Positions 1 to 14,226 of a stretch of DNA of 43,449 bases are shown piece by piece. The notes under the pieces were generated by a model. It saw nothing but the letters and a program-made list of their open reading frames with translations, ran no database searches and was not told the origin of the DNA. This DNA is from Escherichia phage CY1_Cui-2023. The stretch is taken from sequence record OQ357823.1; one strand, given 5' to 3'. Within the stretch, counting starts at the first letter, position 1; each line of letters opens with the position of its first letter. Position numbers and translations under genes: made by a program.

Positions 1-3000
1 ATGGCGCAGGACATTAAAATTTACGGCAGTAAGGGCGGGCAACCGAAGCAGCACCAGCCTGTAGAGCAACCTGACAACCTAATATCTGTAAACAAGGTTA
101 AGGTTTTACTGGCCGTTTCTGATGGCGAGGTCGATAATTCGTTCTCACTAAAGGATCTGTATCTCGCTGACGTTCCGGTTCAGAATCAGAATGGAACATA
201 CAACTACGAGGGTGTAACGGCAGAATTTCGCCCAGGCACACAGAGTCAGGACTACATTGCCGGGCTAGAGGGCGCGAACTCAGAGGTGCAGGTTAACAGG
301 GAAATATCCAACTCAACACCTTACATCATTGCCGTTAACAACACTCAGCTATCAGCAATCAGGGTTAAGCTGTTCTGGCCTCGATTAATTAAACAAGAGA
401 ACAATGGCGACCTGAACGGAACATCTTGCGAGTATGCGATTGACCTGTCCGTTGATGGCGCTACATACACTGAATACACTCGAGGCGTGGCTAATGGCAA
501 GACAACCAGCGGATACGACAGGAGCATTAGGGTTAATCTTCCTGCTGAGTTCTCGAGTGCGTTGGTGAGGGTTCGCAAGATCACGGCAGATTCAGAAAGT
601 TCGACGCTGGTTAATGACATGCAAATTACGACCTATCAGGAAGTAATCGACGCCAAGTTCCGCTACCCACTTACAGCGCTGGTTTACGTTGAGTTTAGTT
701 CTGACCTCTTCCCTAACGGAATCCCGACGATTTCAATCAAGAAGAGGTGGAAGTTGATTCGCGTTCCGACCAACTACAACCCAGAGACAAGGACTTATAG
801 CGGAACCTGGAACGGAACATTTAAGATGGCTTACTCCAACAACCCAGCCTGGGTTCTTTACGATCTGGTAACGAATCAGCGTTACGGTCTGGACCAGCGT
901 GAGCTTGGTATCACGATTGATAAGTGGGGTCTGTATGAAGCTGCGCAGTTCTGTGACCAGATGGTTCCAGATGGCAAGGGTGGGATGGAGCCTAGATACC
1001 TGTGCGACGTTGTTATTCAGCAGAAGGTTGAAGCGTATCAGGTAATCCGTGACATTTGCTCTATCTTCCGTGGGTTAACCTTTTATGATGGCGAGCAGAT
1101 AGGGATTGTTGTCGATAAGCCACGCCAGCCTTCATACGTCTTTACCAACGACAACGTTGTTGATGGTCTGTTTAACCGCACGTTTGGTAGCGACAAGTCA
1201 CTGTACACAGTCGCTAACGTTCAGTTTGATGACGTTGAAAACTCATACCAACAGGATGTTGAGCCAGTATTCGAACTGGAGGCAACAAGGCGTTTCGGTT
1301 ACAACCCGGTTGACCTGACAGCCATTGGGTGTACTCGCAGGAGTGAAGCAAACCGCCGTGGTCGATGGCTGTTAAAGACAAACCTCCGCAGTGAGACAAT
1401 CAGCTTCACTACAGGTCTGGAAGGGATGATACCTATGATTGGTGAGGTGATTGCGGTTAATGACCAGGCCTGGTCTAGCAACTACACCCTCAACCTCTCT
1501 GGTCGCATCGAGTCAGTGAGTGGGTTACAGGTTTTTGTGCCGTTTAAAATTGATGCTGCTGCTGGCGACAGGATTCTAATTAACAAGCCTGACGGCATGC
1601 CTGAGTACAGGACAATTGCATCTGTATCTGAAGATGGAATGACGCTGCAACTTAACACAGCTTTTAGCTTTACTCCTCAGCCGGATACTGTGTTCGCGAT
1701 TGATAAGGAAAATCTGGCGCTTCAGCAGTATGTTGTTACCGGGATTCAAAAAGCTGATAGCGATGGAGATGATGCTTTTGGCTACACGATTACGGCAGTT
1801 GAGTACGACCCGAACAAATACGACGAGATTGATTACGGCGTAAACATTCAGGACAGACCAACGTCAATCGTTGAACCAGATACATTACTGGCGCCAGAGA
1901 ATGTTCAGGTGAGCAGCTACAGCAAGGTTGTGCAGGGTTTATCAGTTGAAACAATGATAATCACCTGGGATAAGGTTCAATACGCTAAGACCTACACAGT
2001 CCAATGGAGAAAGGAGAATGGAAACTGGATTAACGTACCGCGCACAGCGAATACAGAGATTGATATTGAAGGTATCTATGCTGGAATTTATCAGGTTCGC
2101 GTAAGGGCTGTTTCTGATACTGAAAACGTTTCTGCATGGTCTGACATTGCTTCGGCTAGCCTTACAGGTAAAATTGGAACACCGTCTGCACCAACTGTAA
2201 TCACGGCTTCAGATGATGAAGTATTTGGTATTAGGGTTAAGTGGGGCTTCCCTGAGAACTCGGCCGATACGTCATATACTGAATTGCAGCAAGTAGCCGA
2301 CAATGGTGATGGCACTTACCCTCCAGAGAATGCCAGCTTGTTAACACTAGTTCCTTACCCGAGCTACGAGTATTGGCACACTACATTACCTGCAGGTAAG
2401 GTCATCTGGTACAGGGCGCGACTAATCGACAAGATTGGTAACGTCTCTCCGTGGACTGACTTTGTGCGTGGAATGGCAAGTGATGATGTGGAATCTATCA
2501 TTGGCGAAATAAAGGTTGATATAGAGAACTCTGAGGGGTTCAAGTATCTCCAACAGAATGCCATAGCAAAGAACTCTGCTATACAGGCGCAAGCTGAATC
2601 AATTATTGAGAACGCCCTCGCGAATGAAGGTGACGTTCGAAGAATGACAAAGGAAAACGGCAAGAGGAAGGCTGAATTTGTTCAGGCAGTGAATCTTATC
2701 GCCGATGAGAAAAAGGCTCGTGTAGAGGCTCTTACGCAGCTTAAAGCACAGATAGACGATGAGGTTGTTGCATCTCTTACAAGGATTGACGTTGCACTTG
2801 CGGAAGAAACTCAAGCAAGAACCACTGCTGACACTGCATTATCAGCAAGGCTTGGTGATAATGAGGCCGCTCTAAATGAGAAGCTGGACACCTACGTTAC
2901 CGCTGATTCAATTGGTGCGCAGTACGGGGTTAAACTTGGACTTAAATACAATGGTGTTGAATACAGTTCTGGAATGAGCATGGAGCTAGCCGGTTCTGGT

Positions 3001-3387
3001 GGCAATGTTCGCAGTCAGGTTATCTTTGATGCTAACAGGTTCGCAATCAGTAACGGCATTAGCTCAGGTTCCGGTCAGTGGTCACTGCCTTTCGTGGTTG
3101 AGAATAATCAGGTGTTCATCCAGAGCGCAGTAATCCAGGATGGTTCAATCACTAACGCGAAGATTGGAAACCGGATTCAGTCTAACAATTACGTTGCTGG
3201 ATCTCAGGGATGGTCGATTGATAAGTCAGGTAGCGCCGAGTTTAGTAACGCAACCGTAAGGGGTAGTCTGTACGCCAACAGTGGTAACTTTGCATTCAAC
3301 GGCACTAATAACACGGTTCAGATTAACGGAAACGGGATCACTGTTAACCTGGCGAATGGGGGGAGGGTTGTTGTAGGTACGTTCTAA
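1..3387 (+). CDS. central tail fiber / host-specificity protein (lambda gpJ-like), 1128 aa
   Basis: Uninterrupted 1128-codon ORF from ATG at nt 1; N-terminus follows the lambda J pattern; fibronectin type III-like segment (VQWRKENGNW...VRVRAVSD); Gly/Asn-rich C-terminal receptor-binding-like tail; I-K-L-M genes sit at the other window end. Confidence 0.85.
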   Translation: MAQDIKIYGSKGGQPKQHQPVEQPDNLISVNKVKVLLAVSDGEVDNSFSLKDLYLADVPVQNQNGTYNYEGVTAEFRPGTQSQDYIAGLEGANSEVQVNREISNSTPYIIAVNNTQLSAIRVKLFWPRLIKQENNGDLNGTSCEYAIDLSVDGATYTEYTRGVANGKTTSGYDRSIRVNLPAEFSSALVRVRKITADSESSTLVNDMQITTYQEVIDAKFRYPLTALVYVEFSSDLFPNGIPTISIKKRWKLIRVPTNYNPETRTYSGTWNGTFKMAYSNNPAWVLYDLVTNQRYGLDQRELGITIDKWGLYEAAQFCDQMVPDGKGGMEPRYLCDVVIQQKVEAYQVIRDICSIFRGLTFYDGEQIGIVVDKPRQPSYVFTNDNVVDGLFNRTFGSDKSLYTVANVQFDDVENSYQQDVEPVFELEATRRFGYNPVDLTAIGCTRRSEANRRGRWLLKTNLRSETISFTTGLEGMIPMIGEVIAVNDQAWSSNYTLNLSGRIESVSGLQVFVPFKIDAAAGDRILINKPDGMPEYRTIASVSEDGMTLQLNTAFSFTPQPDTVFAIDKENLALQQYVVTGIQKADSDGDDAFGYTITAVEYDPNKYDEIDYGVNIQDRPTSIVEPDTLLAPENVQVSSYSKVVQGLSVETMIITWDKVQYAKTYTVQWRKENGNWINVPRTANTEIDIEGIYAGIYQVRVRAVSDTENVSAWSDIASASLTGKIGTPSAPTVITASDDEVFGIRVKWGFPENSADTSYTELQQVADNGDGTYPPENASLLTLVPYPSYEYWHTTLPAGKVIWYRARLIDKIGNVSPWTDFVRGMASDDVESIIGEIKVDIENSEGFKYLQQNAIAKNSAIQAQAESIIENALANEGDVRRMTKENGKRKAEFVQAVNLIADEKKARVEALTQLKAQIDDEVVASLTRIDVALAEETQARTTADTALSARLGDNEAALNEKLDTYVTADSIGAQYGVKLGLKYNGVEYSSGMSMELAGSGGNVRSQVIFDANRFAISNGISSGSGQWSLPFVVENNQVFIQSAVIQDGSITNAKIGNRIQSNNYVAGSQGWSIDKSGSAEFSNATVRGSLYANSGNFAFNGTNNTVQINGNGITVNLANGGRVVVGTF

Positions 3388-3393
3388 AATAAA

Positions 3394-3417
3394 AGCCCCG
3401 AAAGGGGCTTTATCTTT
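3394..3417. terminator. bidirectional hairpin terminator between J and the convergent leftward gene
   Basis: AGCCCC-GAAA-GGGGCT stem-loop flanked by A-run upstream and T-run downstream, so it reads as an intrinsic terminator on both strands. Confidence 0.6.
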
Positions 3418-4372
3418 AATACATGTTTGGAAGGTATGGGAGTGACATTGCTATATTTGTGTTGAATGGGAACCGTGCTCCTGTTTTCGTTGAGTAGTTA
3501 CCAATAACGCTTCCGAACTCACTCCTAACTGAGCCACCAGACATAACGACACCTTTATACCGGAGGTTGTTATAGCCACCAGTTACCCGAGTGTATGCTC
3601 CGGTTCTAAGTATTGGGAAGTACCCACCACCTATTGACTGGAATGAATTTGTTAACTGTAGAAATCCACCAAGAACAAATGGACGCTTAACTGTCGAGAA
3701 AACAACCTGACCAGCTGGGTTTACTATAGTTATTCCAGGTCCGCCAACTGGAGCTGTATTATTGAATATAACGAGATCTATAGTTACAGATGCGCCAACA
3801 TTATCAATTCCAGTATATGAGTTGCTTCTGCAAAGTATGCTGTCCCCATCAAATTCAACAGTTACATTCGGGTCACTCCACCTCCCAAAAGGAACTCCAG
3901 TAACTGGAAGTTTGTAACTACCATTTACTGTAACAGTCCCTACATATTGAGCGGTAAGTATCCTTGAGTTTGTTGTTATGGAAACAAAGTCAGTTGAGTT
4001 TGCAACCAAAATTCCCTGCCCACTTGCAGCACCCGCTATCTCAAAGCAGTTACCTGAGAAGTTTATCAACCTTCCTCTAGCACCGTTGAAGTTACTAACA
4101 TTTATCCTTCCCTGTGAGTCTGATACACGCTGGAATCCATTTAGGTAATAAACCTCAGGCACTACGCCAAAAACAACTACATCAACCGCTTTAATTGGAA
4201 GCATGAATGCAGTTGATCCACTAGTTTGTGTAAGACCGAAAGTTAAACCTCCATTTGCTGAGTTGAAACCTGACGTTGGAACTGAACCTGTCACATTTGG
4301 AATTCTCAAACCTGATGTTATCTCCATTGCCGGCCTTCCATCATTAAGGTTTATGTAGATACCTTGACCCAT
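3416..4372 (-). CDS. hypothetical Gly/Ser/Thr/Asn-rich beta-type protein (possible fiber/adhesin-like), 318 aa
   Basis: Long ORF; ATG at 4372 overlaps upstream stop as TAATG; strong SD AAGGAG 8 nt upstream; low-complexity G/S/T/N composition. Track start 4381 is GTG; ATG 4372 preferred. Confidence 0.5.
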   Translation of the reverse strand: MGQGIYINLNDGRPAMEITSGLRIPNVTGSVPTSGFNSANGGLTFGLTQTSGSTAFMLPIKAVDVVVFGVVPEVYYLNGFQRVSDSQGRINVSNFNGARGRLINFSGNCFEIAGAASGQGILVANSTDFVSITTNSRILTAQYVGTVTVNGSYKLPVTGVPFGRWSDPNVTVEFDGDSILCRSNSYTGIDNVGASVTIDLVIFNNTAPVGGPGITIVNPAGQVVFSTVKRPFVLGGFLQLTNSFQSIGGGYFPILRTGAYTRVTGGYNNLRYKGVVMSGGSVRSEFGSVIGNYSTKTGARFPFNTNIAMSLPYLPNMY

Positions 4373-4614
4373 TATTTCCACTCCTTAGAGCCGTGGTCAG
4401 CAACAGACCCGCTGTAACCGCCACCATTCATCTTAATGCCGTCGTAGCGCACATCAACTTCACCAGCCGGTAGAACCACTCCACCTTTCCATTTAGCCAC
4501 GCATACTCCGTTTGCTTGCGTTGCACACCAACCGTCAGGGCGAGGACCAGAAGAGCAACCCACCATCATGATTGCTGCTGCGGAGATGATTGAAAGTTTG
4601 ATTAAGTTAGTCAT
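4372..4614 (-). CDS. small lipoprotein, Cor-like superinfection-exclusion candidate, 80 aa
   Basis: N-terminal signal peptide with lipobox MMVGC-SS; AAGGA SD before ATG 4614; sits next to the tail-fiber gene as cor does in T1/phi80-type phages; translationally coupled to the downstream gene. Confidence 0.55.
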
Positions 4615-4682
4615 TTTCTTATTCCTTAGAATGTGCATTTCGTTTCGATGGAGTAATCATACCTCAACTGTGAGTTTTGTCT

Positions 4683-4943
4683 TTAGCAATTAATGCTATT
4701 CAACCACCTGTTATATTTATCCTTCTCATTGATTGCCTTTTCCAGTGACTTGAATCTTAAAAGTAGTGGCATGCAGTCAACACTCATAGTTAAGGATTCG
4801 TCGCAGCTATTTGAACCAGTCAGCCAAAGTGAGAAGTACTGTTGTTCGAGGCCGTAGTTCCTGTCTTTATTGACTCTAACGCTAACAACTTTGAATTTCA
4901 AACCTGCCAACTTAACCTTATCTATAAATTCTGACTTATTCAT
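4683..4943 (-). CDS. hypothetical protein, 86 aa
   Basis: ORF with AAGGAG SD 7 nt upstream of ATG 4943. Confidence 0.5.
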   Translation of the reverse strand: MNKSEFIDKVKLAGLKFKVVSVRVNKDRNYGLEQQYFSLWLTGSNSCDESLTMSVDCMPLLLRFKSLEKAINEKDKYNRWLNSINC

Positions 4944-5015: not shown

Positions 5016-5683
5016 CTTCTTTCCAGCAACGGCTTAATGTCGATACCAAGTTTATTCTCGATCAATCCTGCCAGTGCGTCAGTCTTCTCTTTAAGAGCGA
5101 AACATTGTGCTTCATACCTAAACCTTGCTTCCATTTCATCGGAACGTGATACCCAAGACTGCCGAGCTTCACAAGCGAGAAGGTCAAGCTTCTCGTCAAT
5201 GTTCTTATCCATAAGGAGGATTTCATTGATTCGCTGCTCCGCAACGATTCGCTGGCCAAGGTGAGCGTTCTGCGCATTAGCCACACCAAGCATCACGCGC
5301 GCTTCTTTTAGCTCATCAATACTCACCATCTGGCTGATTACTTCCGTTTGTTTGTTGATGGTGGACTGCATCTCTTTAAGCTTATTAAGAACCGCACGGC
5401 GAACAGACTTTGACTCACGCATTCCAACAAGAAGCATCTGTTCCATATTAAGCACTGGTGAGTTGATTGACTTTCTATAACCCCCTCTCCTCTCACTTTT
5501 GATTACGAAACTTTCGTAGTCAAACTCAAACCCCTCAAGCTCATCCTCTATCCTCTCAACAAAGTCATTGTGCCGAACATCAGATTCACCGGCAACTAAC
5601 CTCGCTGGGTTGATAACTTCATTCAAAAACTGATAACTGTTCATTTTTACATCTTCATTTAGTAGAGTTAGGTTCATTTTCAT
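5000..5683 (-). CDS. Rha-family phage regulatory protein (putative)
   Basis: N-terminal segment LNEVINPARLVAGESDVRHNDFVERI matches the Rha-domain pattern; track ORF begins with TTG at 5710, first in-frame ATGs at 5683/5677; start uncertain. Confidence 0.5.
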   Translation of the reverse strand: MKMNLTLLNEDVKMNSYQFLNEVINPARLVAGESDVRHNDFVERIEDELEGFEFDYESFVIKSERRGGYRKSINSPVLNMEQMLLVGMRESKSVRRAVLNKLKEMQSTINKQTEVISQMVSIDELKEARVMLGVANAQNAHLGQRIVAEQRINEILLMDKNIDEKLDLLACEARQSWVSRSDEMEARFRYEAQCFALKEKTDALAGLIENKLGIDIKPLLERSSTNS

Positions 5684-5782
5684 CTCTCTTCTGGTTTTTT
5701 CATGGCTCAAATCTGAGCCATCACTTTGGTTCCCAGCCTGAAATTTAGGTTGGATGACAGCACCATTGCCGCCACGCGCCTA

Positions 5783-5825
5783 AATATACCTAAAGATAGC
5801 CAGTTGTCTTTAGCAAATCGTGCTA
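5783..5825 (-). promoter_or_regulatory. dyad-operator promoter (TAGCA-cgatt-TGCTA) with -10 TATATT, for the Rha-like gene
   Basis: Dyad 5811-5825 read on minus strand; TATATT exactly 30 bp downstream (5788-5783). Confidence 0.5.
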
Positions 5826-5854
5826 TTTATCGACAATTTCACCATAAATCACAG

Positions 5855-6020
5855 TTACACGTAACCGATGTAACTCGATGTATACAATCTCATCCGCGGG
5901 AAATGATATACTCGCTGTTACGCCAATTTACGCATTGGTTACATTAAAATATCTATATATATCAACCTTTTACTCTTATTATTATTATTATATATATTAC
6001 TGTGTATATCATGTAACTAC
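5855..6020. repeat. intergenic control region with GTAAC/GTTAC motif cluster plus (TA)n and (ATT)5 microsatellites
   Basis: GTTACACGTAACCGATGTAAC, GTTACGCC, GGTTAC at 5862-5945; (TA)4-5 at 5953-5961; TTATTATTATTATTA at 5977-5991; CATGTAAC at 6010-6017; lies between divergent genes. Confidence 0.6.
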
Positions 6021-6313
6021 TTCTATAGAGTGTTCCGGTTATAATTTTAATATCATGTGGATTTATACAGTATTGCGCGGCAGCTATACCAATGCACCCT
6101 CAGCGAGAAACGGCATACACGATATACACGATGTTTACATTGAGCTATGGCTGGCTTGAGATGCCAAAAAGCGTAACTAGTGCCAATGCCTACACGAAAT
6201 TACAAAGATTCACGCGTAAACTTAAATCAACGATTGGCAAAACCAATTGGACTGGTTACGGTGCTGAATATATAGTTACCTCATCGAAAGCAATCAACCA
6301 GAGAGATATATAA

Positions 6314-6508
6314 ATGACCTACTACATTATCAAAGAGAAAAACAACGCACTGTTCGGCGACTGCTACTTTGGAGGAGAGGCCGGTTACACCACGGATAAG
6401 AACGAAGCAGACAGATTCGAGACCAAAGGAGAAGCCCGCGATGTACTGACCGGTTACTTCACTGAAGAAGATTTGAAGTCTGTTAAAGTAGTTAAGGTCA
6501 AGGGGTGA
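6314..6508 (+). CDS. hypothetical protein, 64 aa
   Basis: ORF directly abutting the exonuclease gene; first rightward gene after the control region. Confidence 0.5.
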   Translation: MTYYIIKEKNNALFGDCYFGGEAGYTTDKNEADRFETKGEARDVLTGYFTEEDLKSVKVVKVKG

Positions 6509-6511
6509 GTT

Positions 6512-7477
6512 ATGAGCTTTAAAGTTTTTACGCGAGAGGAGCTAAGCAACGAGGCTTACCACGCTGAAACTGAACACATCTCAGGTAGCTCGCTTGTCGA
6601 GATTATCCAGGGATCACCAGCCAAGTGGAAGTTTAAGCAGCGCAACAATGATAGCAAGGCGCTTAAGTTCGGCACGCTAAGCCACACGATGATTTTAGAG
6701 CAAGATGTATTCGAAAAAGAATACCTTCGCGCAACAGACCTTGACTCGATTGAAGGCTTAATTACAAGTCAGTCTGGATTATCATCAGCACTTAAAAAAG
6801 TTGGTGTAGCTGGCACGTCAGGTAAGGGGTATAGCGAGCTTATAGAGATGATGTATCGATCTGGTGAGGATTGGCCCGTTGGATGGTTAATTGAGCAGCA
6901 GGAGAGCGCCCAGGCGCTTGCGGATGGTAAGGAGCTAGTTAGCGCAGTAGACTATGACAAGGTTGTAGCGATGCGTGAGGTCCTCTGCAACATTCCGGCG
7001 TATAATGCGATCGTGAACAGTAAGACGGCGCAGAAAGAGTTATCGATCTTCGGTGAGATTCTAGGAGTCGGCGTTAAGATTCGAATTGACCACGTTGATG
7101 TTGTTGATGGAGCAGTTCGGATCACAGATTACAAAACGACAGCAGACGCAAGCCCGGAAGGATTCGGTAAGTCAGCATTCAACCACGGATACCTTGCAAA
7201 AATGGCACTTCAGCGTGATCTGTTTGTGAAAGCATTCAACGAGAAGCGCAAGGTTGTTGTGGGGTTGCTGGCACAGGAGAAGGTGGAGCTATACTTACCA
7301 ATGCTGTACACCCTAACTGACGAACAGCTTCGCATTGGTCGTCTCCAGTATCTTGAGGCACTTGCCACTTACAAGAAGTGCAAGGAGCTAGATATCTGGC
7401 CTGGGTACTCGAACGGCATAACAGAGCAAGAACTACTAGTCCCTGAGTGGGCTCTAAAGCAATACAAAGAAATCTAA
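6512..7477 (+). CDS. PD-(D/E)XK recombination exonuclease (lambda Exo/YqaJ-like)
   Basis: Motif IDHVDVVDGAVRITDYKTT resembles the D...D/E-x-K nuclease core; SD AAGGGGTGAG; immediately upstream of erf. Confidence 0.65.
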   Translation: MSFKVFTREELSNEAYHAETEHISGSSLVEIIQGSPAKWKFKQRNNDSKALKFGTLSHTMILEQDVFEKEYLRATDLDSIEGLITSQSGLSSALKKVGVAGTSGKGYSELIEMMYRSGEDWPVGWLIEQQESAQALADGKELVSAVDYDKVVAMREVLCNIPAYNAIVNSKTAQKELSIFGEILGVGVKIRIDHVDVVDGAVRITDYKTTADASPEGFGKSAFNHGYLAKMALQRDLFVKAFNEKRKVVVGLLAQEKVELYLPMLYTLTDEQLRIGRLQYLEALATYKKCKELDIWPGYSNGITEQELLVPEWALKQYKEI

Positions 7478-7478
7478 A

Positions 7479-7521
7479 CAGCACGAATTGCTAAAACAAA
7501 ACGGGATGACTTAGGTATAGT
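7479..7521 (+). promoter_or_regulatory. dyad-operator promoter (CAGCA-cgaat-TGCTA) with -10 TATAGT
   Basis: Dyad 7479-7493; -10 at 7516-7521 exactly 30 bp from dyad centre; leader AATCAACAACGAACGAGG precedes ATG 7551. Confidence 0.55.
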
Positions 7522-7550
7522 TATCCAATCAACAACGAACGAGGTTAAAG

Positions 7551-8201
7551 ATGCAAATTTCAGAATTATGCAAATCAATTTTAAAAGCGCTTCACACTGC
7601 TAAATCGCTATTTGCGAAGGCTGAAAAGTCTAAGCAGAACTCTCACTTAAAGAATAAATACGCTACCTTAGAAGACGTTTTGGCGGCTGTTGAGCCTGGT
7701 TTATATGAGTGTGGTTTGGTGATGTTCCAGAGTGTGATTGATGACGAACAAACAAATCGCATGAAGGTCGAGACAAAGCTGTTTCATGTTGAATCTGGAG
7801 AGTGGGTAAGCTTCTTAATGATAGTCCCAATCAGCAAGAATGATGCACAAGGTTACGGATCAGCTTTAACATACGCTCGTCGCTACGGTATCACAGCTGC
7901 CTTGGGTCTTAGCCAGGCTGATGATGACGGAAATCTTGCAGCCAAAGGCGTTAAGGATTTCAAGCGAGAGCTAGAGAAATGCAATACTCTTGATGAACTT
8001 CGTAACGTCTGGAAAGAGGCTAAGCAGTCACTTGATGCGGCTGGATGGAAGGTTTTTGAACCTCACATTATCGAGCGAAAAGCAGAGATTGAGGCTAGTG
8101 CAATGACGGGCTTCAACCCAGCGAAACCTAAGCAGGTTGCACAAAAAGCTGTTCAAGAAGAAAAGGCTGAAGTACAATCTCAAGAAATCGATACATTCTA
8201 A
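7551..8201 (+). CDS. erf: Erf-family single-strand annealing protein
   Basis: YATLEDVLAAVEP and GSALTYARRYGITAALGL match the P22 Erf signature (..YARKY..). Confidence 0.8.
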   Translation: MQISELCKSILKALHTAKSLFAKAEKSKQNSHLKNKYATLEDVLAAVEPGLYECGLVMFQSVIDDEQTNRMKVETKLFHVESGEWVSFLMIVPISKNDAQGYGSALTYARRYGITAALGLSQADDDGNLAAKGVKDFKRELEKCNTLDELRNVWKEAKQSLDAAGWKVFEPHIIERKAEIEASAMTGFNPAKPKQVAQKAVQEEKAEVQSQEIDTF

Positions 8202-8241
8202 TTTAACGGGGCTTAGGCCCCAACATTAAGAGAGAAAGAAA

Positions 8242-8661
8242 ATGAGTCACGTAATTACTGGTGTTATCCGTCGCGCTCCGTTTACTAAAGAAGGTCAGAA
8301 TGCAAATGGCACCTGGAAAATGTACGCGGTTGATTTGAGTGAGCGCTACAAGGATAAGGATGGACAGGCGCATTACAGTAACTATCGAGCCGCCTTCTTC
8401 GCAAAAGAGTCAATGCTTGCATGGTATGACGAAGCGTTTCAGGAAGGTAAGGTTGTTAGCGTAAGTTGCGAAACTTTGGCTGTAGATGTTCGTGATAAAG
8501 ATGGTAAGACGTATGTAACCATTAATATGAACAATCCTCGACTTGAGTTTAGTCAGCGCGGTGAAGGTGGGCAGCAGCAGCAGAAACAACAACAGCAGCA
8601 GCAGCAACAACGACAGCCGCAGCCACAACAGCAGTTTGAAGCTGACAATATTCCTTTCTGA
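8242..8661 (+). CDS. ssb: single-stranded DNA-binding protein
   Basis: OB-fold-like N-terminus, Gln-rich linker and acidic C-terminal tail ending DNIPF, as in E. coli SSB (DDDIPF). Confidence 0.8.
   Translation: MSHVITGVIRRAPFTKEGQNANGTWKMYAVDLSERYKDKDGQAHYSNYRAAFFAKESMLAWYDEAFQEGKVVSVSCETLAVDVRDKDGKTYVTINMNNPRLEFSQRGEGGQQQQKQQQQQQQQRQPQPQQQFEADNIPF
8570..8634 (+). repeat. CAG/CAA trinucleotide repeat encoding the SSB poly-Q linker
   Basis: GGTGGGCAGCAGCAGCAGAAACAACAACAGCAGCAGCAGCAACAA... read directly. Confidence 0.8.
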
Positions 8662-8670
8662 TAAAAGATA

Positions 8671-8696
8671 AAGCCCCTTTCGGGGCTTTTTTATTT
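8671..8696. terminator. bidirectional intrinsic terminator between ssb and the convergent tail fiber gene
   Basis: GCCCC-TTTC-GGGGC hairpin with A-run upstream and T-run downstream. Confidence 0.7.
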
Positions 8697-10187
8697 GCTA
8701 ATCAATGTTGACACAATAGCTTTAAGTTCCTCCACTTCCCTTTCAAGTTTAGTCACCCTATCATCCGTCTCTCGCCCAACCTGAACAAGCAATCCAGTAA
8801 TGCCGGAATAGTCAACCATGTAGCTCCTATTCTCCAGTTGCAGTGGAGTTCCATCAGGGTTTACACCGTGAGCATCTATGTATTCAAAAGTACCACTAAA
8901 CGCTTCCGGTATAGCATCTTGAACCTCCTGTGCGATTACGCCAGCATAAGGCATTCCATTAGATTTCAAGGTATAGGTGTAACCGTTCATCATGCGTAAC
9001 TTTACAGTCGCGTCAGAGATAACTTCAATGTTATCTTTCTTTTCTCTGTCAGATGTTTGGTTAAATGCCGTAGCATTAATAGGCCCATTCACTTCGAAAT
9101 ACCTTCCTCCATCAGCGTTTTGTTGTGCGTACCAAAGAAAGCCATTATCTAGCTTGCACTCAACTACAGAAGGTCTTCCGTTGTTATTGCCCCAAGCCAT
9201 GATGGTGGCATTTCTATTAGGCTCATGCACTTCTAACGAGAATGACTTTACATTTCGCGTAGCGCTAATAACAGAACCAAACTCAGGCTGTATTGTTTTG
9301 AATGACTCAACGCTTAAAAACCTTTGCCACGCGCTCCATTTCCATGTGCCAGAATCCAAGTTGTACTGTCTTCTGTATGTTATGCCTTGTTTGTTGGAAG
9401 GAATATAATCTTGCGTAGTATGCCTGACACCATTCGCTATAGCGCTGTAAACAAAAAGAGTGCCAGCAGTTTCTTCAGGATATCCATTGGCAACGGTCGC
9501 ATTAGCTGTGTTGTTTTGGTAATAAATGCCAGTATTTTCGACTCCACTAATCGAGTCAATGTTAACGTCTGACGGAATTGGAGACGAGGAGAGATAAGGA
9601 ACCATAAGGTTATTCCTTGCTGTTTTCTTATTCTCCAGATCTGCCAGGTTCTGGCTTTTAGCCAGAAGTAGACCTGGGTTAATGCTGTCAGCGTAACCTG
9701 CCGCTTCTTGCGCTGATGCCGCTGCTGCGTCTTTATCAGAAGCTACCTGATTTGCATCATTTGATACCTGCGCTCCAATATTAACAATCTCACCATATTG
9801 CGTATTTACTTGATTTACATCACTTGCAAATTTATCCTGATTAAAATCCTTAAAAACATCAACCGCTGTTGCAACCTCAGATTCTCTCGATTGGTAGAAG
9901 CGCAGAGTTTCCGCAACATCCTGTGCCAATCCCTGAACGGTAATCCCATCATGAGCTAGAATCGCGTAACCAGTACCAGCAGGAACAGTTTCAGAATTTG
10001 GGTTGTATACATTAATCTGCGTATCGCTGATAATTTCAGAGATAGTGTAAATCTTCACTGGTTCAGTTTTGAACACAATAGTGGCGCCTACACGAATGAG
10101 AGTAAGCGGAGCCATCCAGTTGGTTCCAGTACCAGTTACGGTACCGTTGGCTGCCAGGCTTGCTGTGCCAGAATCATAAATTGCCAT
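8691..10187 (-). CDS. tail fiber protein with C-terminal intramolecular chaperone (peptidase S74-like) domain, 498 aa
   Basis: C-terminal SDREKKDNIEVIS...GVIAQEVQDAIPEAF...YSGITGLLVQ...LEREVEELKAIV matches the auto-cleaving chaperone domain of phage fibers/endosialidases; SD GGAGA before ATG 10187. Confidence 0.7.
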   Translation of the reverse strand: MAIYDSGTASLAANGTVTGTGTNWMAPLTLIRVGATIVFKTEPVKIYTISEIISDTQINVYNPNSETVPAGTGYAILAHDGITVQGLAQDVAETLRFYQSRESEVATAVDVFKDFNQDKFASDVNQVNTQYGEIVNIGAQVSNDANQVASDKDAAAASAQEAAGYADSINPGLLLAKSQNLADLENKKTARNNLMVPYLSSSPIPSDVNIDSISGVENTGIYYQNNTANATVANGYPEETAGTLFVYSAIANGVRHTTQDYIPSNKQGITYRRQYNLDSGTWKWSAWQRFLSVESFKTIQPEFGSVISATRNVKSFSLEVHEPNRNATIMAWGNNNGRPSVVECKLDNGFLWYAQQNADGGRYFEVNGPINATAFNQTSDREKKDNIEVISDATVKLRMMNGYTYTLKSNGMPYAGVIAQEVQDAIPEAFSGTFEYIDAHGVNPDGTPLQLENRSYMVDYSGITGLLVQVGRETDDRVTKLEREVEELKAIVSTLISK

Positions 10188-10252
10188 TGTAAAGTCTCCG
10201 TTTGTAAAATAGCACTAATTGATAAAATTCATTCTACCATCTTTCAGGCAAT

Positions 10253-10272
10253 AAAAAACCTCCCGAAGGAGG
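10253..10272 (-). terminator. intrinsic terminator after primase gene (minus strand)
   Basis: CCTCC-CGAA-GGAGG hairpin followed on minus strand by TTTTTTAT. Confidence 0.6.
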
Positions 10273-11196
10273 TTAGTTTAGTAAGTCGTTGGCTTTGTAT
10301 ATTTTCTTGCGTATTCCTGTTTTAAATGACCTCCCGTCGTTAGGAATCACCACATCAACATTACGATCGTCAGCGACAGCGAGTATATCAGTATCACAAT
10401 CGCGGCAAGCAATCCTGAACCTTCTTGACCTGTCGCGGTGGATAACCATCTCCATATTGTAACAGGAGAAAGCAACAAACACCTCGCGACCCCCAGTAGC
10501 AAGGTGAACATGTACGCCATCAATGTAATTGTCGACAACATAAGTGTAACTATTATCCTGCCTAGAACCAATAACGTAAACAGAATCACGAGTGTAATCA
10601 CCAGCAAGGAACTTAACATTTGAATCCTCATCAATAAACATTACGTTACAAAACTCATCACCAAGCCCATCCTCATAAACCATAGAGCATGGGGTTGCGT
10701 GAATCATTGAACCATCCTTAGCGATACCAACATCAAAACCATCACTAAGGTAAATACCCTCGTATGTCGTGAGTGGACTTGATTCGACTCTCATGGTTCT
10801 CTCCATTACCTCCAGAACTTTCTCGTGGTCGACATGGGCACCCATTTTGTATCGCTGAGTTCTCGACGCTTGCTTGTTTGCTTTAACTATAACCTCAATT
10901 GGTGTTAAGTTCAGCCAGTCACCAAGCAAATTTACTGAATCGGCGAAGGACAATCCAGTGCACTTCATGACCCATCCTATACCTGTATCATTACCGCACT
11001 GACTGCAAATTGCAGCGCCATTACCTTTCTCGTTATTTAATTCATCAGTAAAACGAAACCTATCCTTACCAAAGCAGTAAGGGCATGGCCCGTGTTTCTT
11101 GCTAAGGTTTTCTTTTGTCCAGCCCATGTGAGATTCGTAAAACTTTGACCACATGCCCTTCATTTTTGACAAAACTTCATTCTTATCGTGATGCAT
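10273..11196 (-). CDS. DNA primase (zinc-ribbon plus TOPRIM-like)
   Basis: CPYC...CSQC zinc-binding motif near N-terminus followed by acidic TOPRIM-like region; position beside helicase. Confidence 0.6.
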   Translation of the reverse strand: MHHDKNEVLSKMKGMWSKFYESHMGWTKENLSKKHGPCPYCFGKDRFRFTDELNNEKGNGAAICSQCGNDTGIGWVMKCTGLSFADSVNLLGDWLNLTPIEVIVKANKQASRTQRYKMGAHVDHEKVLEVMERTMRVESSPLTTYEGIYLSDGFDVGIAKDGSMIHATPCSMVYEDGLGDEFCNVMFIDEDSNVKFLAGDYTRDSVYVIGSRQDNSYTYVVDNYIDGVHVHLATGGREVFVAFSCYNMEMVIHRDRSRRFRIACRDCDTDILAVADDRNVDVVIPNDGRSFKTGIRKKIYKANDLLN

Positions 11197-11236
11197 AAAA
11201 AAGCCCTCGCATTTAACTTGAGGGCATTATACATAC

Positions 11237-11719
11237 TCATTCAGATCTTTCTTTAGCTTTTCGTGCGGCTTCGTTGGCAATCTTATTCTTTCGCCATGGT
11301 CGACAGGGTGGCTTTGTTGCTAGTTCTGCATCGGTAACTACGCGAAGCATATGGCGCTTCTTGCATCGAAGTGTTAGCGGTTTTCCGTTTCCGTCGAATT
11401 GCAGGTCTGGTCGGCAGAATGTAGCTCGAAATCCCTCCTTATTTCGCTTGTACGCATTATGTGCTCGCTGAGCCCCTCGAGCCGAAATCATACCGCGGTT
11501 AAACCATTCCGATACAGCTTGGTTGGACACATTTAACTGCTTTGCGATGTTCGCCTTTGTACCGTAGAAATCAAGAACCATCTCCAGGCGAGCACGTAGC
11601 CCAGCCTTTACCTCATCTTTCAATACGTAGTAGCCTGATGGTCGTTTGCGTTGCTTTTTGTCTTTTGTGCGCACGGTTCCGTTATTGCCGTTAATAGTTC
11701 GCTTGTCGATTTCACACAT
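11237..11719 (-). CDS. putative HTH DNA-binding protein (Cro/YdaS-like), 160 aa
   Basis: Segment KQLNVSNQAVSEWFNRG resembles a helix-turn-helix recognition helix; basic N-terminus. Confidence 0.45.
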   Translation of the reverse strand: MCEIDKRTINGNNGTVRTKDKKQRKRPSGYYVLKDEVKAGLRARLEMVLDFYGTKANIAKQLNVSNQAVSEWFNRGMISARGAQRAHNAYKRNKEGFRATFCRPDLQFDGNGKPLTLRCKKRHMLRVVTDAELATKPPCRPWRKNKIANEAARKAKERSE

Positions 11720-11732
11720 CTCATTACCTCAA

Positions 11733-11774
11733 TAGCACTTTTTGTTAAACAATGGGTTCGATGGCTGTTATTAT
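11733..11774 (+). promoter_or_regulatory. dyad-operator promoter (TAGCA-ctttt-TGTTA) with -10 TATTAT, for helicase gene
   Basis: Dyad 11733-11747; -10-like hexamer 11769-11774. Confidence 0.5.
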
Positions 11775-11815
11775 ACATCAATGCAACGAACTAAAGAACT
11801 ATCAGGATATTTAAA

Positions 11816-13810
11816 ATGCTTCCAGTAGAACGCTTAGTGGCAAACTTTGACCAAGAAAAGATTAAGCAGATTCAGAGAGACTATCAGTTTGGAGATATTA
11901 CGCCGTATCCATTCCAGTGCGTGACATTCGACCAAATCGGCAAGAATATTGCTAAGTACGAAGCTCCGTTCATCGCAGACCTGTCTGTATCGGCTGGCAA
12001 GACAATCATTATTGCCATGATTGGTAAACGCATGGAGCAACTTGGCCTTCCTTATATGGTACTTTCTCGCCAGTCTGAAATTATCAGTCAGAACGCTGAA
12101 GAACTTCTCAACTTTGGCATTCGTAATAGCGTATATTGCGCTGGCCTTAACGTTAAATCAGTTTATTACCCAACCATAGTGGCTAGTGAAGGAACGGCTG
12201 CCAATGGATTGTTTAAGGGTCTTGGTGACTATGTTCCTGCGGTTATCGCAATAGATGAGGCACACATGGTGGACCACATGGATATCGTAGAAGCTGAAGA
12301 GAACGAAGAGACATTTGAGCAAATGAGCACCAAGAAAGGCGAAATGGTTTTCAAGGATGGAGTGAATACCGGATTGCTTGGAACTGGTCGTGCGCAGTAC
12401 ACACTAATCATCACTGAAATGAAGCGCCGCTGCAAAGAGAAGTATGGTCGCGAGCTCCGTATATTCGGCTTGACTGGTAGCCCGTATCGTAACAACGACC
12501 ACATTGTAGTTAGTAACCCAAATATTCGTGGCTTCTGGCGCAAGACGGTAATGCAAGTTCCGACCAGTTACCTGGTTGATTTGGGATTCGTTGTTCCAAC
12601 TGTTTACGGTGAGGTTGGTGATTTGGGTTATGACCTTAGCGAGTTTGCACCTGATGGAAGTGATGGCGTTAAGGATTTCAGCAAAAAAGAAATGGATGCA
12701 ATGGCTGCAAAGATTCACGAAAACCAGACGATGACACAAAAGATAATGGGGTTCGTTATCAAAATACTTGAAACACGTAACGCCGCACTGGTAACTTGCG
12801 CTGGTAAAATGCACTGCGATGAAGCGGCTGCTGCTCTACCCGATGGTTATCCTTACGCGATAATCACTGATTCCACTGGTGAGAAGAAGAGAAGGGAAAT
12901 TCTAGATGAATGCCAGACCGGAAAGTACAAGATTATTTTTCAGATTGGATGCTTAACCACAGGCGTTTCGGTGCCTCCGTGGGACACAAGTGTCATACTC
13001 CGCAAGATTGGAAGCCTGACATTAATGATTCAGCTTCTTGGTCGTGGAATGCGAATTCTCAAGAAGAAACATATTGAAATTGGTATGAAAAAGGATGACC
13101 ACTTAGTCCTGGACTTTGCTGGCGCACTTGATGATATGGCTGAACTTTACTTTGATCCAATAATTGAAGAGATTCAGGCCGAGAAGTTTAAGTCATCACG
13201 CAATGGTGATTCAGATGTTCGAGTGTGCCCAATTTGCTCATACGAGAATTCGCCTTTTGCTCGTAGATGCGGAAATAAGATTGACGGAAAGAGATGTGAG
13301 CACTTCTTTACTTTTACAGTTTGTGAAGATATTACAGACCTGCAGACAAAGGCTATTATCAAAAAAGGGTGCGGGACTCGCAATGATATAGCAGCGAAGG
13401 TCTGTCGAGAGTGCGGAGAGATGCTTAAAGACCCCAATGCTAACCTTACAGGTAAGATGTATCGTCGTGGTGATTACCTTCGTGTTTATGATTTTCAAGT
13501 TGGCTTAAGTAAGAATCAAACCGGAATTGTTGTTAAGTACAATATCATGGCTCATAACGGAGATCGGTTTAATGCATGGGAATTCTTCAACCCCGAGTCT
13601 GACCATCGAGTTTGCAGCGTGCTATGGAAGAACTTCTGCCTTGCTCATATAGAGAATCGCGCTGAAGCCACAAGAATTGGCAGACTTCGCAATGCGAGAA
13701 TGATTATGACGAACGTAGATAAGTTCCGCGCACCAGTGCAGGTTACACATAGAAAAAACGGCAAAGGTAAAGATATAATCGCTTTTAAGAATTTTGGAGA
13801 ATTGTTATGA
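11816..13810 (+). CDS. SF2 DNA helicase (DEAH-box) with C-terminal zinc ribbon
   Basis: Walker A-like SVSAGKT, DEAH box (IDEAHMV), C-terminal CPIC...CGNK...C...CRECG cysteine cluster. Confidence 0.75.
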   Translation: MLPVERLVANFDQEKIKQIQRDYQFGDITPYPFQCVTFDQIGKNIAKYEAPFIADLSVSAGKTIIIAMIGKRMEQLGLPYMVLSRQSEIISQNAEELLNFGIRNSVYCAGLNVKSVYYPTIVASEGTAANGLFKGLGDYVPAVIAIDEAHMVDHMDIVEAEENEETFEQMSTKKGEMVFKDGVNTGLLGTGRAQYTLIITEMKRRCKEKYGRELRIFGLTGSPYRNNDHIVVSNPNIRGFWRKTVMQVPTSYLVDLGFVVPTVYGEVGDLGYDLSEFAPDGSDGVKDFSKKEMDAMAAKIHENQTMTQKIMGFVIKILETRNAALVTCAGKMHCDEAAAALPDGYPYAIITDSTGEKKRREILDECQTGKYKIIFQIGCLTTGVSVPPWDTSVILRKIGSLTLMIQLLGRGMRILKKKHIEIGMKKDDHLVLDFAGALDDMAELYFDPIIEEIQAEKFKSSRNGDSDVRVCPICSYENSPFARRCGNKIDGKRCEHFFTFTVCEDITDLQTKAIIKKGCGTRNDIAAKVCRECGEMLKDPNANLTGKMYRRGDYLRVYDFQVGLSKNQTGIVVKYNIMAHNGDRFNAWEFFNPESDHRVCSVLWKNFCLAHIENRAEATRIGRLRNARMIMTNVDKFRAPVQVTHRKNGKGKDIIAFKNFGELL

Positions 13811-14226
13811 AAGTTACAGACAAAACTGACTACCTCGAGTTCTATGGCGGCCCGGTGAAGTCATGCCCGAAGGAAGACGAAGAACAAATCTTTTGCTCTG
13901 ATTGGGTTAAGTATAACTATCCGCAGGTTGTTTACTGGCACACAGTTAATGAATCAATGAAGAGCATTGGTCAGGCAAGGAAAGACCAGGCTAAAGGACT
14001 TCTTAAAGGCGTATCAGACTGCCTATTTCTAATACCTGAGTCATTACGAGGAAGTTATCCATTTGGCGCAATAGAGCTAAAGAGGGCTGGGAAAACACAG
14101 GCTAGCCCAGTAAGTGATGAGCAAAAGTCATTCCTAAAAAGCGTAAGGGAATCAGGCGGTTTCGCAGGAGTTGCCTACGGCAGAGATGGTTTTCTTGCTG
14201 CATTCGCAGAGATGATTAGAAAATAG
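13807..14226 (+). CDS. VRR-NUC domain nuclease
   Basis: DCLFL...IELKRAGK...QKSFLKSVRESGGFAGVAYG matches the VRR-NUC PD-(D/E)XK pattern; ATGA overlap with helicase stop. Confidence 0.7.
   Translation: MKVTDKTDYLEFYGGPVKSCPKEDEEQIFCSDWVKYNYPQVVYWHTVNESMKSIGQARKDQAKGLLKGVSDCLFLIPESLRGSYPFGAIELKRAGKTQASPVSDEQKSFLKSVRESGGFAGVAYGRDGFLAAFAEMIRK

Follow-up and report, generated by a model that had tools for sequence, protein, structure and literature searches.

In phage T5, the gene for pb5 (Oad), the receptor-binding protein (RBP) at the tip of the central fibre, adjoins a gene for Llp, a periplasm-facing outer-membrane lipoprotein (van den Berg et al. 2022, PMC9586334). The receptor is FhuA, a TonB-dependent transporter, and Llp alters its extracellular loops by long-range allostery, which prevents binding of the RBP. 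FhuA is also the target of the Cor cassette of T1, phi80, N15, and HK022, in which a small exclusion lipoprotein is encoded just beyond a J-like gene. In T1 the order is J, the two plus-strand genes ST32 and ST31, and then cor on the opposite strand. Phage Rtp (Drexlerviridae, Braunvirinae) reportedly does not need FhuA or TonB, and its lipoprotein Rtp45 is said to have been proposed as Cor-like when the genome was first described.

Modules of a further class are directed at LptD and are already known from genetics (Maffei et al. 2021), receptor engineering (Black et al. 2025, PMC13035648), and structure (Dunbar et al. 2025, PMC12685063). An RBP locus downstream of gpJ was defined and matched to LptD in the first of these studies. 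Two mutants with altered lptD loops do not support plating of phage OzMSK (vB_EcoS_OzMSK/MSK; Black et al. 2025, PMC13035648), and Bas01 and Bas18 are blocked by these loop deletions as well. The conserved residues of the RBPs were placed at the base of the protein and the binding-loop sequences fall into three groupings (Black et al. 2025, PMC13035648). The RBP of Oekolampad (Dhillonvirus) was produced and purified on its own with a His tag and then combined with LptDE, to which it binds from the extracellular side (Dunbar et al. 2025, PMC12685063). Rtp45, by contrast, was solved bound to LptDE(M) on the periplasmic side and is called an exclusion protein; the studies consulted present a structure-based mechanism of exclusion for it rather than a plaque-assay phenotype. 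In Rtp45, Cys30 and Cys38 form a disulfide and a strand of residues 30-35 pairs with LptD residues 318-323. AF3 gives incorrect models of Rtp45 and of both complexes (Dunbar et al. 2025, PMC12685063, for all of these points).

Anatomy of the Locus

How does the host-recognition locus of Escherichia phage CY1_Cui-2023 compare with these systems? The window is the whole stretch of DNA analysed, 43,449 nt of record OQ357823.1. Beyond the gene for a J-like tail tip protein lie two leftward genes (Table 1), which very probably make up an LptD-directed cassette of RBP and exclusion lipoprotein in a T1-like siphophage (Drexlerviridae, Braunvirinae). Both ORFs match curated Pfam families (DUF6453, E 3e-131; PF24052, E 2e-38), and the pair is therefore far beyond chance. 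Phage TR2 matches the window across the locus at 99.7% nucleotide identity.

Table 1. Features of the locus, with positions in the window.
Feature	Position	Strand	Basis
J-like tail tip protein, 1128 aa	1..3387	+	Pfam FNIII-A_GpJ, Phage-tail_3, Phage_Tail_Tip; PHROG 31 central tail fiber J
Bidirectional intrinsic terminator	3392..3411	both	Terminator scan scoring both strands; sequence reading
RBP gene, 318 aa, Pfam DUF6453, Rtp44/RBP-Oekolampad family (predicted)	3416..4372	-	Profile and PDB matches
AAGGAG Shine-Dalgarno of RBP gene, within 3' end of lipoprotein gene	4381..4386	-	Sequence reading
Superinfection-exclusion lipoprotein gene, 80-aa precursor, PF24052, Rtp45 family (predicted)	4372..4614	-	Profile and PDB matches
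AAGGA Shine-Dalgarno of lipoprotein gene, 8 nt before ATG at 4614	4623..4627	-	Sequence reading; conserved in seven-phage alignment
Promoter-like unit of lipoprotein-RBP operon	4656..4698	-	Promoter scan; cross-phage conservation

The stop codon of the 318-aa ORF (3416-3418) lies 28 nt beyond that of J, with which it is convergent. Four nucleotides separate the end of J from an 8-bp stem-loop, AAAGCCCC-GAAA-GGGGCTTT, which has five GC pairs in the stem, a 4-nt loop, and T-runs on both strands, and which serves both J and the leftward operon. At the other end of the ORF, the stop codon TAA of the lipoprotein gene (4374-4372) and the start codon ATG (4372-4370) overlap by one base to give TAATG, with the Shine-Dalgarno sequence 8 nt upstream of this ATG; the mechanical ORF list extends the frame to a GTG at 4381. 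The initial annotation had described a leftward pair that is coupled through TAATG, runs convergently to J, and ends in the same bidirectional terminator, and each of these points is borne out. The start of the lipoprotein gene is placed at 4614, because an ATG at 4638 lacks a Shine-Dalgarno sequence and all homologues begin MTNLIK.

Two further leftward genes stand upstream of the pair, one for 86 aa and the other an anti-repressor-like ORF of about 214-236 aa. A search of the four leftward proteins against NCBIfam gave no match. With Rfam models at gathering thresholds, the sole hit in the window is the tRNA, which lies outside the locus.

Is the pair expressed from a promoter of its own? 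Upstream of the lipoprotein gene, an inverted repeat TAGCA-N5-TGCTA (4684-4698) is followed by a -35-like AAGACA (4678-4683), a 16-nt spacer, a -10-like TATGAT (4656-4661), and a conserved leader, CCATCGAAACGAA. In an alignment, this promoter-like unit is kept in Rtp, Bas01, Bas02, OzMSK, DTL, and IME542. A sigma-70 scan of the window returned 9 sites against 7.4 in shuffled controls, which is not above chance, so the element was taken from its conservation across phages. The repeat itself occurs 15 times in the window where 1.9 copies are expected, and most of these copies precede genes in an arrangement like this one. About ten inverted repeats linked to the regulator Rtp52 are reportedly described in the original Rtp genome paper.

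The 318-aa Protein as Receptor-Binding Protein

The larger protein is rich in Gly, Ser, Asn, and Thr, as first noted (G 13.8, S 9.1, N 8.5, and T 8.5%, together 39.9%). It matches the DUF6453 profile with 437 bits (cut-off 25). In a phmmer search against the PDB it resembles chain C of 9RPT, 9RPW, and 9RQI, which is the Oekolampad RBP on LptDE (E 1.2e-64), and the alignment with 9RPT_C covers the full length (residues 1-318 here and 1-321 there). Because these full-length matches are to solved structures, membership in the RBP family is settled, and on sequence evidence the 318-aa protein is the phage's own RBP, of the DUF6453 family. Its gene occupies the 'bona fide RBP locus downstream of gpJ', as do its counterparts in Rtp, Bas01, Bas02, OzMSK, and Oekolampad. 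A place in the virion is suggested by this position and by the binding of the homologue.

A homologue is carried by 339 phage records. The closest relatives of the allele are those of TR2 (99.4% identity), ETEP102 (87%), and DTL (82%), followed at a distance by OzMSK_038 (62%), Bas01 (46%), Rtp44 (45%), Bas02 (43%), and Oekolampad (42%). The columns that are invariant in a six-phage alignment are M1 G4 I5 I7 N10 D11 G12 R13 M16 I18 T19 G21 R23 ... P315 Y318. The N-terminal base motif M..GI.I..NDGR..M.IT.G.R and the C-terminal P.(M/F)Y are both present, while the tip loops are variable, and divergence within the family is greatest in the regions predicted to contact the receptor. For instance, Gln299 of the Oekolampad RBP aligns with Lys296 here. 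The terminal receptor would be LptD, to judge from homologues that are 42-62% identical.

The Predicted Exclusion Lipoprotein

The initial annotation of the smaller gene product as a lipoprotein with a VGC lipobox holds. A hydrophobic h-region leads to a lipobox M-V-G-C, identified by pattern, with the lipidated residue at Cys20 (codon 4555-4557). The Ser at +2 corresponds to outer-membrane sorting, and there is no inner-membrane retention signal. The protein matches the PF24052 Phage_lipoprotein profile with 131 bits at a cut-off of 27 (E 1.7e-38) and chain D of 9RPS, which is Rtp45, with E 2.2e-40 and 89% identity. Identity to OzMSK_039 is 81% and to the Oekolampad exclusion lipoprotein 33%. 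Not only Cys20 but also Cys30 and Cys38 are invariant in six homologues; residues 30-35, the LptD-pairing strand of Rtp45, read CATQAN here and CATQAS in Rtp45. An insertion of four residues, MNGG (residues 62-65), sets the protein apart from Rtp45 and counts against the assignment. The other features suggest that the 80-aa protein is a superinfection-exclusion lipoprotein of the Rtp45 family and that this copy would itself exclude.

Synteny and Related Cassettes

A close described counterpart is Rtp44/Rtp45 of Rtp, in which the RBP and lipoprotein genes likewise converge on J and overlap by 1 nt. The proteins fall into the same Pfam families and the lipobox, Cys30, and Cys38 are the same. The two loci differ in that the RBP is only 45% identical, the MNGG insertion is found here, and Rtp has an intergenic region where the two extra leftward genes stand in this phage. 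OzMSK is the closest phage found with demonstrated LptD dependence (Black et al. 2025, PMC13035648). It shares the 1-nt overlap, an insertion at the same site of the lipoprotein, and an RBP annotated as binding LptD, but its RBP is of another clade and a DNA methylase stands upstream of its pair. In Oekolampad, which belongs to another phage genus, the pair bas18_0025/bas18_0026 also adjoins J and matches the same families (DUF6453, E 2e-121; PF24052, E 2e-21), although identity is 42% for the RBP and 33% for the lipoprotein and the genes are 2 nt apart rather than overlapping. The parallel with T5 lies in the pairing of an RBP gene with an adjoining gene for a lipoprotein that acts on the loops of the receptor; the receptor there is a TonB-dependent transporter, and allostery takes the place of the steric loop displacement proposed for the Rtp45 family.

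The same 1-nt overlap is found in Rtp, AugustePiccard, JeanPiccard, and OzMSK. More broadly, a J-convergent pair with a stop/start junction of 0 or -3 nt occurs in Rtp, Bas01, Bas02, OzMSK, Oekolampad, and 15 loci from IMG/VR. The IMG/VR set comprised 80 metagenomic or prophage loci, in which lipoproteins were sought by HMM search of all six-frame ORFs. An Rtp45-type lipoprotein accompanies the RBP homologue in 15 of the 80, with a stop/start offset of 0 or -3 in all 15. In 64 of the 80, the RBP homologue directly follows J, is co-directional with it, and precedes a side-tail-fibre gene; no Rtp45-family ORF was found within 2.5 kb of the RBP homologue in these 64.

How have the parts of the cassette diverged? 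Compared with Rtp, nucleotide identity is 45-62% in the RBP body, 85-88% in the 5' part of the lipoprotein gene, and 73-82% at the 3' end of J. Phage Rao1 is 96% identical across the adjacent backbone and yet has a different RBP locus. The last 45 or so residues of J (LYANSGNFAFNGTNNTVQINGNGITVNL.NGGRVVVGTF) are common, in a C-terminal alignment, to the J proteins of phages with this type of RBP and differ in T1 and Rao1, both of which have other RBP loci. Thus, the C-terminus of J co-varies with RBP type.

Alternative Readings of the Pair

Do both genes exclude? The initial annotation proposed an exclusion module beside the host-range gene in which the larger protein may be a second receptor-masking or surface component, next to a Cor-like lipoprotein. 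The translational coupling would fit such a module, as would the label 'membrane protein / moron' that PHROG 1265 and many GenBank records give to the large protein, and residues 53-71 (19 aa) reach a Kyte-Doolittle hydropathy of 1.77. A transmembrane reading of this stretch was rejected, because it contains Lys and Asp and the family is a beta-sandwich; the purification of the homologous Oekolampad RBP as a separate His-tagged protein also speaks against it (Dunbar et al. 2025, PMC12685063). A search of the 318-aa protein for a signal peptide or a lipobox found neither, and its 25 N-terminal residues have a mean hydropathy of -0.12. Moreover, the full-length homologue binds LptDE from outside as a phage RBP, and the fact that 64 of 80 IMG/VR homologues belong to a tail operon without an exclusion partner indicates that this protein is the target of exclusion and not the excluder. 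An excluding role for both genes is therefore very improbable; exclusion is the predicted function of the lipoprotein, and its partner is the RBP.

The lipoprotein might instead be a Cor- or Llp-type blocker of FhuA or another TonB-dependent transporter used as receptor in the manner of T1 and phi80; the initial annotation supplied the Cor/FhuA frame. Cor is likewise encoded beside the tail genes, the genome neighbourhood then continues in both cases with exonuclease, Erf, and SSB genes, and at least one GenBank record calls the homologous neighbour a 'Cor superinfection exclusion protein'. BLASTP aligns the lipoprotein with T1 Cor at 25.8 bits (single-pair E 1e-5, 31% identity, 25% gaps), about half of the identities lying within the signal peptide and lipobox, and the PF24052 profile gives T1 Cor 17.7 bits where the cut-off is 27; a very distant relationship between the two is possible on these scores. 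A phmmer search of the lipoprotein against all PDB chains at E<=10 returned Rtp45 and two chance matches but no Llp chain, though the FhuA-Llp complex 8A60 is cited as deposited. The architecture of the T1 cassette is absent: no homologue of ST32 or ST31 was found in the window, and ST31 is unlike the 318-aa protein (E 0.59). Given also the 89% identity to Rtp45, which targets LptDE, and the LptD dependence of all tested phages with this RBP family, a blocker of FhuA or a similar transporter is extremely improbable, and the homology search for Cor and Llp does not bear out that frame.

A different question is whether the roles are as proposed here and the RBP of the TR2/ETEP102/DTL clade has switched receptor, or binds LptD in a way that escapes resistance by loop deletion. 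Divergence within the locus peaks in the RBP body, with 42-62% amino acid identity to verified LptD binders, binding-loop sequences fall into three groupings (Black et al. 2025, PMC13035648), and a literature search for the receptor of DTL, one of the closest relatives, found no data. However, RBPs verified to bind LptD can share as little as 33% identity with one another (Rtp44 and Oekolampad), and a switch is thus not predicted by divergence alone. The linked lipoprotein has to fit the receptor, and its identity to the lipoproteins of LptD phages is 81-89%. Such a switch or escape by the clade is quite unlikely. That this particular allele engages LptD through different loops, or another receptor, while keeping a nearly unchanged Rtp45-type lipoprotein is likewise unlikely; if true, a diverged RBP beside a conserved excluder would be a natural test of the reach of one periplasmic excluder over diverging RBPs.

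A Proposed Mechanism of Adsorption and Exclusion

The preferred reading, an LptD-directed cassette of RBP and exclusion lipoprotein, joins the gene anatomy, family membership, conserved lipidation and disulfide cysteines, and synteny of this locus to what others have demonstrated on homologues, namely the LptD dependence of Bas01, Bas02, Bas18, and OzMSK and the structures of RBP-LptDE and Rtp45-LptDEM. From this combination we infer that the present allele binds LptD and that its lipoprotein excludes; the timing and purpose of co-expression set out below have the same footing.

The pair would be transcribed leftward as a single unit, from a phage promoter of its own to the terminator that also serves J. 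The RBP would be made in the cytoplasm as a beta-rich virion protein, and the conserved base at its N-terminus would anchor it to the far end of the J-like tail tip. Its loop-bearing tip would enter the barrel of LptD, in the lipopolysaccharide translocon LptDE, from the extracellular face, so that LptD would act as the terminal receptor for irreversible adsorption. The lipoprotein, translated from the upstream coupled gene, would leave the cytoplasm through Sec and receive its lipid at Cys20, after which the Lol pathway would deliver it to the inner leaflet of the outer membrane. From this position it may bind LptDE on the periplasmic side, with a hairpin pushed up the LptD lumen. The hairpin would displace extracellular loop 4 of LptD, leaving RBPs of this family unable to bind. 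In this way the infected cell would be protected from superinfection, and progeny would be spared waste on receptor in lysis debris. Indirect support comes from phage TR1, whose RBP is 70% identical and whose plating survives receptor deletion in five BL21 mutants; an essential receptor would give this result.

Implications

Since the module class is already known and the allele is already in GenBank (phage TR2), little is gained beyond annotation. The phage becomes predictable as LptD-dependent, in which case fhuA/tonA strains would give no protection against it in fermentation or laboratory contamination. Databases at present list the two genes under names such as 'membrane protein/moron', 'DUF6453', 'Cor', and 'hypothetical', which should give way to 'LptD receptor-binding protein' and 'superinfection exclusion lipoprotein'. 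For the family, a strongly conserved excluder beside a fast-diverging RBP illustrates how cassettes evolve in host-range loci.

Organisation of the locus

The J-like tail tip gene and two minus-strand ORFs of 80 and 318 aa are convergent in the window (Table), with a terminator flanked by the stop codons of J (3385-3387) and the 318-aa ORF (3416-3418). The TAA of the lipoprotein gene and the ATG of its partner share one base, position 4372, as TAATG, and an AAGGAG Shine-Dalgarno sequence precedes this ATG by 8 nt. The 80-aa protein has a hydrophobic signal sequence and a lipobox, M-V-G-C, with Cys20 followed by Ser at +2. Gly, Ser, Thr and Asn make up 39.9% of the 318-aa protein, in which no N-terminal signal sequence or export signal was seen. 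The lipoprotein with its lipobox, the TAATG coupling, the Gly/Ser/Thr/Asn-rich partner, the convergence on J and the bidirectional terminator, as listed in the initial annotation, are all real in the sequence; the observation is confirmed, and its interpretation is supported in part.

Features of the tail tip region and other elements of the CY1_Cui-2023 genome
Feature	Coordinates	Strand	Remarks
J-like tail tip gene, 1128 aa	1-3387	+	Pfam FNIII-A_GpJ, Phage-tail_3, Phage_Tail_Tip; PHROG 31
Stem-loop terminator	3392-3411	both	GC-rich 8-bp stem; terminator scan score
Receptor-binding protein (RBP) gene, 318 aa	3416-4372	-	ORF directly 3' of lipoprotein gene
Lipoprotein gene, 80 aa	4372-4614	-	ORF
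AAGACA, 16-nt spacer, TATGAT	4683-4656		follows the inverted repeat
86-aa gene	4683-4943	-	PHROG 4423, function unassigned there; upstream of module
Anti-repressor-like gene, ~214-236 aa	5000-5710	-	PHROG 8235; upstream of module
SSB-like ORF, 139 aa	8242-8661	+	T1 gp27 position
Lateral tail fibre gene, 498 aa	8691-10187	-	C-terminal Peptidase_S74 intramolecular chaperone domain
tRNA-Arg (anticodon CCT)	25902-25977	+	single; ARAGORN and Rfam agree
TAGCA-N5-TGCTA, copies 1-5	4684-4698, 5811-5825, 7479-7493, 10210-10224, 11733-11747		copy 1 is 5' of lipoprotein gene
TAGCA-N5-TGCTA, copies 6-10	14224-14238, 15295-15309, 16564-16578, 17774-17788, 21819-21833
TAGCA-N5-TGCTA, copies 11-15	22629-22643, 24248-24262, 25134-25148, 26821-26835, 36380-36394

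Homologues of the two proteins

The module is already known: an essentially identical copy is present in GenBank, and homologues have been solved bound to their target. In a nucleotide search the locus was 99.7% identical to Escherichia phage TR2 (Drexlerviridae, Braunvirinae, genus Christensenvirus), a fermentation contaminant of BL21(DE3). Weaker matches were to phage Rtp and the BASEL phages AugustePiccard (Bas01) and JeanPiccard (Bas02), where J is followed by a convergent gene of ~311 aa and a 76-aa lipoprotein gene that overlap by 1 nt. The 318-aa protein belongs to Pfam DUF6453 (E 3e-131) and the 80-aa protein to PF24052, 'Phage lipoprotein family' (E 1.7e-38); an NCBIfam search of both gave no match, and PHROGs labels them only 'membrane protein / moron' and 'unknown'. 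The former label, on PHROG 1265, is apparently a propagated annotation error for a family of RBPs. GenBank and RefSeq labels for the two genes are inconsistent ('membrane protein', 'hypothetical protein', 'putative tail tip protein', 'DUF6453 family protein', 'Cor superinfection exclusion protein' and 'carbohydrate ABC transporter permease').

The lipoprotein is 89% identical to Rtp45, the lipoprotein of Rtp, 87% and 80% to those of Bas01 and Bas02, 81% to OzMSK_039 and 33% to the superinfection exclusion protein of the Dhillonvirus Oekolampad. The 318-aa protein is 62% identical to OzMSK_038, 45%, 46% and 43% to Rtp44 and its Bas01 and Bas02 counterparts, and 42% to the Oekolampad RBP; the closest relatives of this allele are TR2, ETEP102 and DTL. 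A PDB sequence search (E<=10) matched the 318-aa protein over its full length to 9RPT chain C (E 1.2e-64) and the lipoprotein to 9RPS chain D (E 2.2e-40), with no significant match beyond the entries of the Oekolampad RBP and Rtp45 structures. All homologues aligned retain Cys20, the lipidation site, as well as Cys30 and Cys38, which form a disulfide in Rtp45; residues 30-35, the LptD-pairing strand in Rtp45, are CATQAN in the window and CATQAS in Rtp45.

'Bona fide RBP loci' have been defined directly 3' of gpJ in Drexlerviridae, Dhillonvirus, Nonagvirus and Seuratvirus; the window-type allele was assigned to LptD from sequences of mutants resistant to Bas01, Bas02 and others, and LptD was predicted as the receptor of Rtp (rtp44/rtp45) (Maffei et al. 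2021, PMC8594841). Two lptD loop mutants were not infectable by OzMSK, OzMSK_038 is annotated as an LptD RBP, and conserved RBP residues were placed at the base (Black et al. 2025, PMC13035648). Cryo-EM shows the Oekolampad RBP inserted into open-state LptDE (9RPT, 9RPW, 9RQI) and Rtp45 on LptDE(M) at the periplasmic outer-membrane interface (9RPS), its hairpin entering the LptD lumen from below and extracellular loop 4 moved by up to 20 Å; the authors note that neither Rtp45 nor either complex is predicted correctly by AF3 (Dunbar et al. 2025, PMC12685063). We infer from sequence that the window RBP allele would depend on LptD. Phage TR1, whose RBP is 70% identical to that of the window, retained plating on five receptor-deletion mutants, which is compatible with an essential receptor and no proof of one.

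Relation to Cor and Llp

Does the lipoprotein belong with Cor, which blocks FhuA, as the initial annotation proposed? The suggestion of an exclusion lipoprotein was right in kind, given the 89% identity to Rtp45, but the family, the receptor and the role of the partner were not. T1 Cor aligned weakly with the window lipoprotein (25.8 bits, with the signal peptide and lipobox contributing about half of the identical positions) and scored 17.7 bits against PF24052, below the cut-off of 27; no similarity to Llp was detected in the PDB sequence search (E<=10). The T1 layout, in which the co-directional genes J, ST32 and ST31 precede cor on the opposite strand, differs from the J-convergent pair of the window, and ST31 was unrelated to the 318-aa protein in a pairwise comparison. 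From these comparisons of sequence and layout, the module would resemble the pb5/Llp and Cor cassettes in logic, with an RBP and a periplasm-facing lipoprotein remodelling the outer loops of the receptor, yet it is a member of the Rtp44/Rtp45 family, predicted to act on LptDE.

Role of the 318-aa protein

Is the 318-aa protein a second receptor-masking component or the RBP itself? It carries no export signal, and the homologous Oekolampad RBP, a phage protein, docks on the extracellular face of LptDE (Dunbar et al. 2025, PMC12685063); the masking role once considered for it is therefore reversed. The same assignment as an RBP follows from its conserved ends (the N-terminal ~25 residues and the C-terminal tail) and variable middle in the alignment with homologues, from the J C-terminus, which tracks RBP type, and from placement in IMG/VR tail operons. 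The C-terminal ~45 aa of J (LYANSGNFAFNGTNNTVQINGNGITVNLANGGRVVVGTF; window 3250-3384) are conserved among the J proteins paired with DUF6453 RBPs, those of Rtp, OzMSK, Oekolampad and prophage loci, and are replaced in T1 and Rao1, whose RBP loci differ. This segment would fit a candidate RBP-docking site that travels with the cassette.

The IMG/VR comparison covered 80 loci, redundant and score-ranked, so that proportions are not population estimates. The window architecture was present in 15 (lipoprotein directly upstream, stop/start offset 0 or -3, J convergent). In 64, a DUF6453 homologue 45-50% identical to the window protein (L021-L088; e.g. L022 2501-3460, L061 2501-3445) lies directly after J, co-directional with it and ahead of a side-tail-fibre gene; DinI- and UmuC-like genes follow downstream, in what looks like a prophage context. 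No Rtp45-family ORF was found within 2.5 kb of the homologue in these 64 loci; the presence of the DUF6453 gene inside tail operons that lack the lipoprotein thus marks it as a tail component.

Promoter-like element and neighbouring genes

The 70 nt 5' of the lipoprotein ATG are conserved in an alignment of seven phages and consist, in order, of the inverted repeat TAGCA-N5-TGCTA, the AAGACA/TATGAT pair and the leader CCATCGAAACGAA. Bounded by this conserved phage-type promoter-like element and the shared terminator, the lipoprotein-RBP pair forms a self-contained transcription unit. With up to one mismatch allowed, the window has 15 copies of the repeat (1.9 expected by chance), a number that none of 100 shuffles reached. 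Most copies lie ahead of genes, just 5' of a -35/-10-like pair and a conserved leader, (C)ATCGAAACGA(A), and the set looks like a putative phage-wide promoter/operator family. Inverted repeats were reportedly assigned to the regulator Rtp52 in the Rtp genome paper; we take the window repeat to resemble these, and the Rtp52 homologue would presumably be the ORF at 11237-11719. A one-mismatch copy (10210-10224) lies 5' of the lateral tail fibre gene, with no -35/-10 pair evident beside it.

The position of the two leftward genes upstream of the module is occupied by intergenic region only in Rtp, by a methyltransferase in Bas01, Bas02 and OzMSK, and by a split DNA-binding/KilA pair in the TR2 annotation; the anti-repressor-like protein had no Pfam match above threshold. 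The SSB-like ORF, with a long Gln-rich tract (QQQQKQQQQQQQQRQPQPQQQ) and then an acidic C-terminal tip, had no match in a Pfam search. OzMSK likewise carries a tRNA-Arg.

Cassette exchange

Nucleotide identity to Rtp is 73-82% at the J 3' end and 45-62% in the RBP body. For the lipoprotein gene it is 85-88% over the 5' two-thirds, falling from 88% to 68% in the 3' third. In the protein, residues 62-65 (MNGG; window 4420-4431) are an insertion relative to Rtp45, Bas01 and Bas02, and the OzMSK lipoprotein carries five extra residues at this position. The pattern suggests recombination with a breakpoint within the lipoprotein gene, whose C-terminal part would then travel with the RBP allele.

By sequence comparison, the genome is a mosaic (1-4800 versus 5672-12000). 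Within 3300-4800, the searched stretch with the J end, RBP and lipoprotein, TR2 is 99.7% identical; over the next 6.3 kb of backbone (recombination, lateral fibre, primase; 5672-12000) the best match is Rao1, at 96.2%, and TR2 reaches 92.4% with gaps. The Rao1 RBP locus differs, with two co-directional genes after J and small opposite-strand ORFs. A backbone close to that of Rao1 with a different RBP locus is in line with the horizontal transfer of such loci described by Maffei et al. (PMC8594841).
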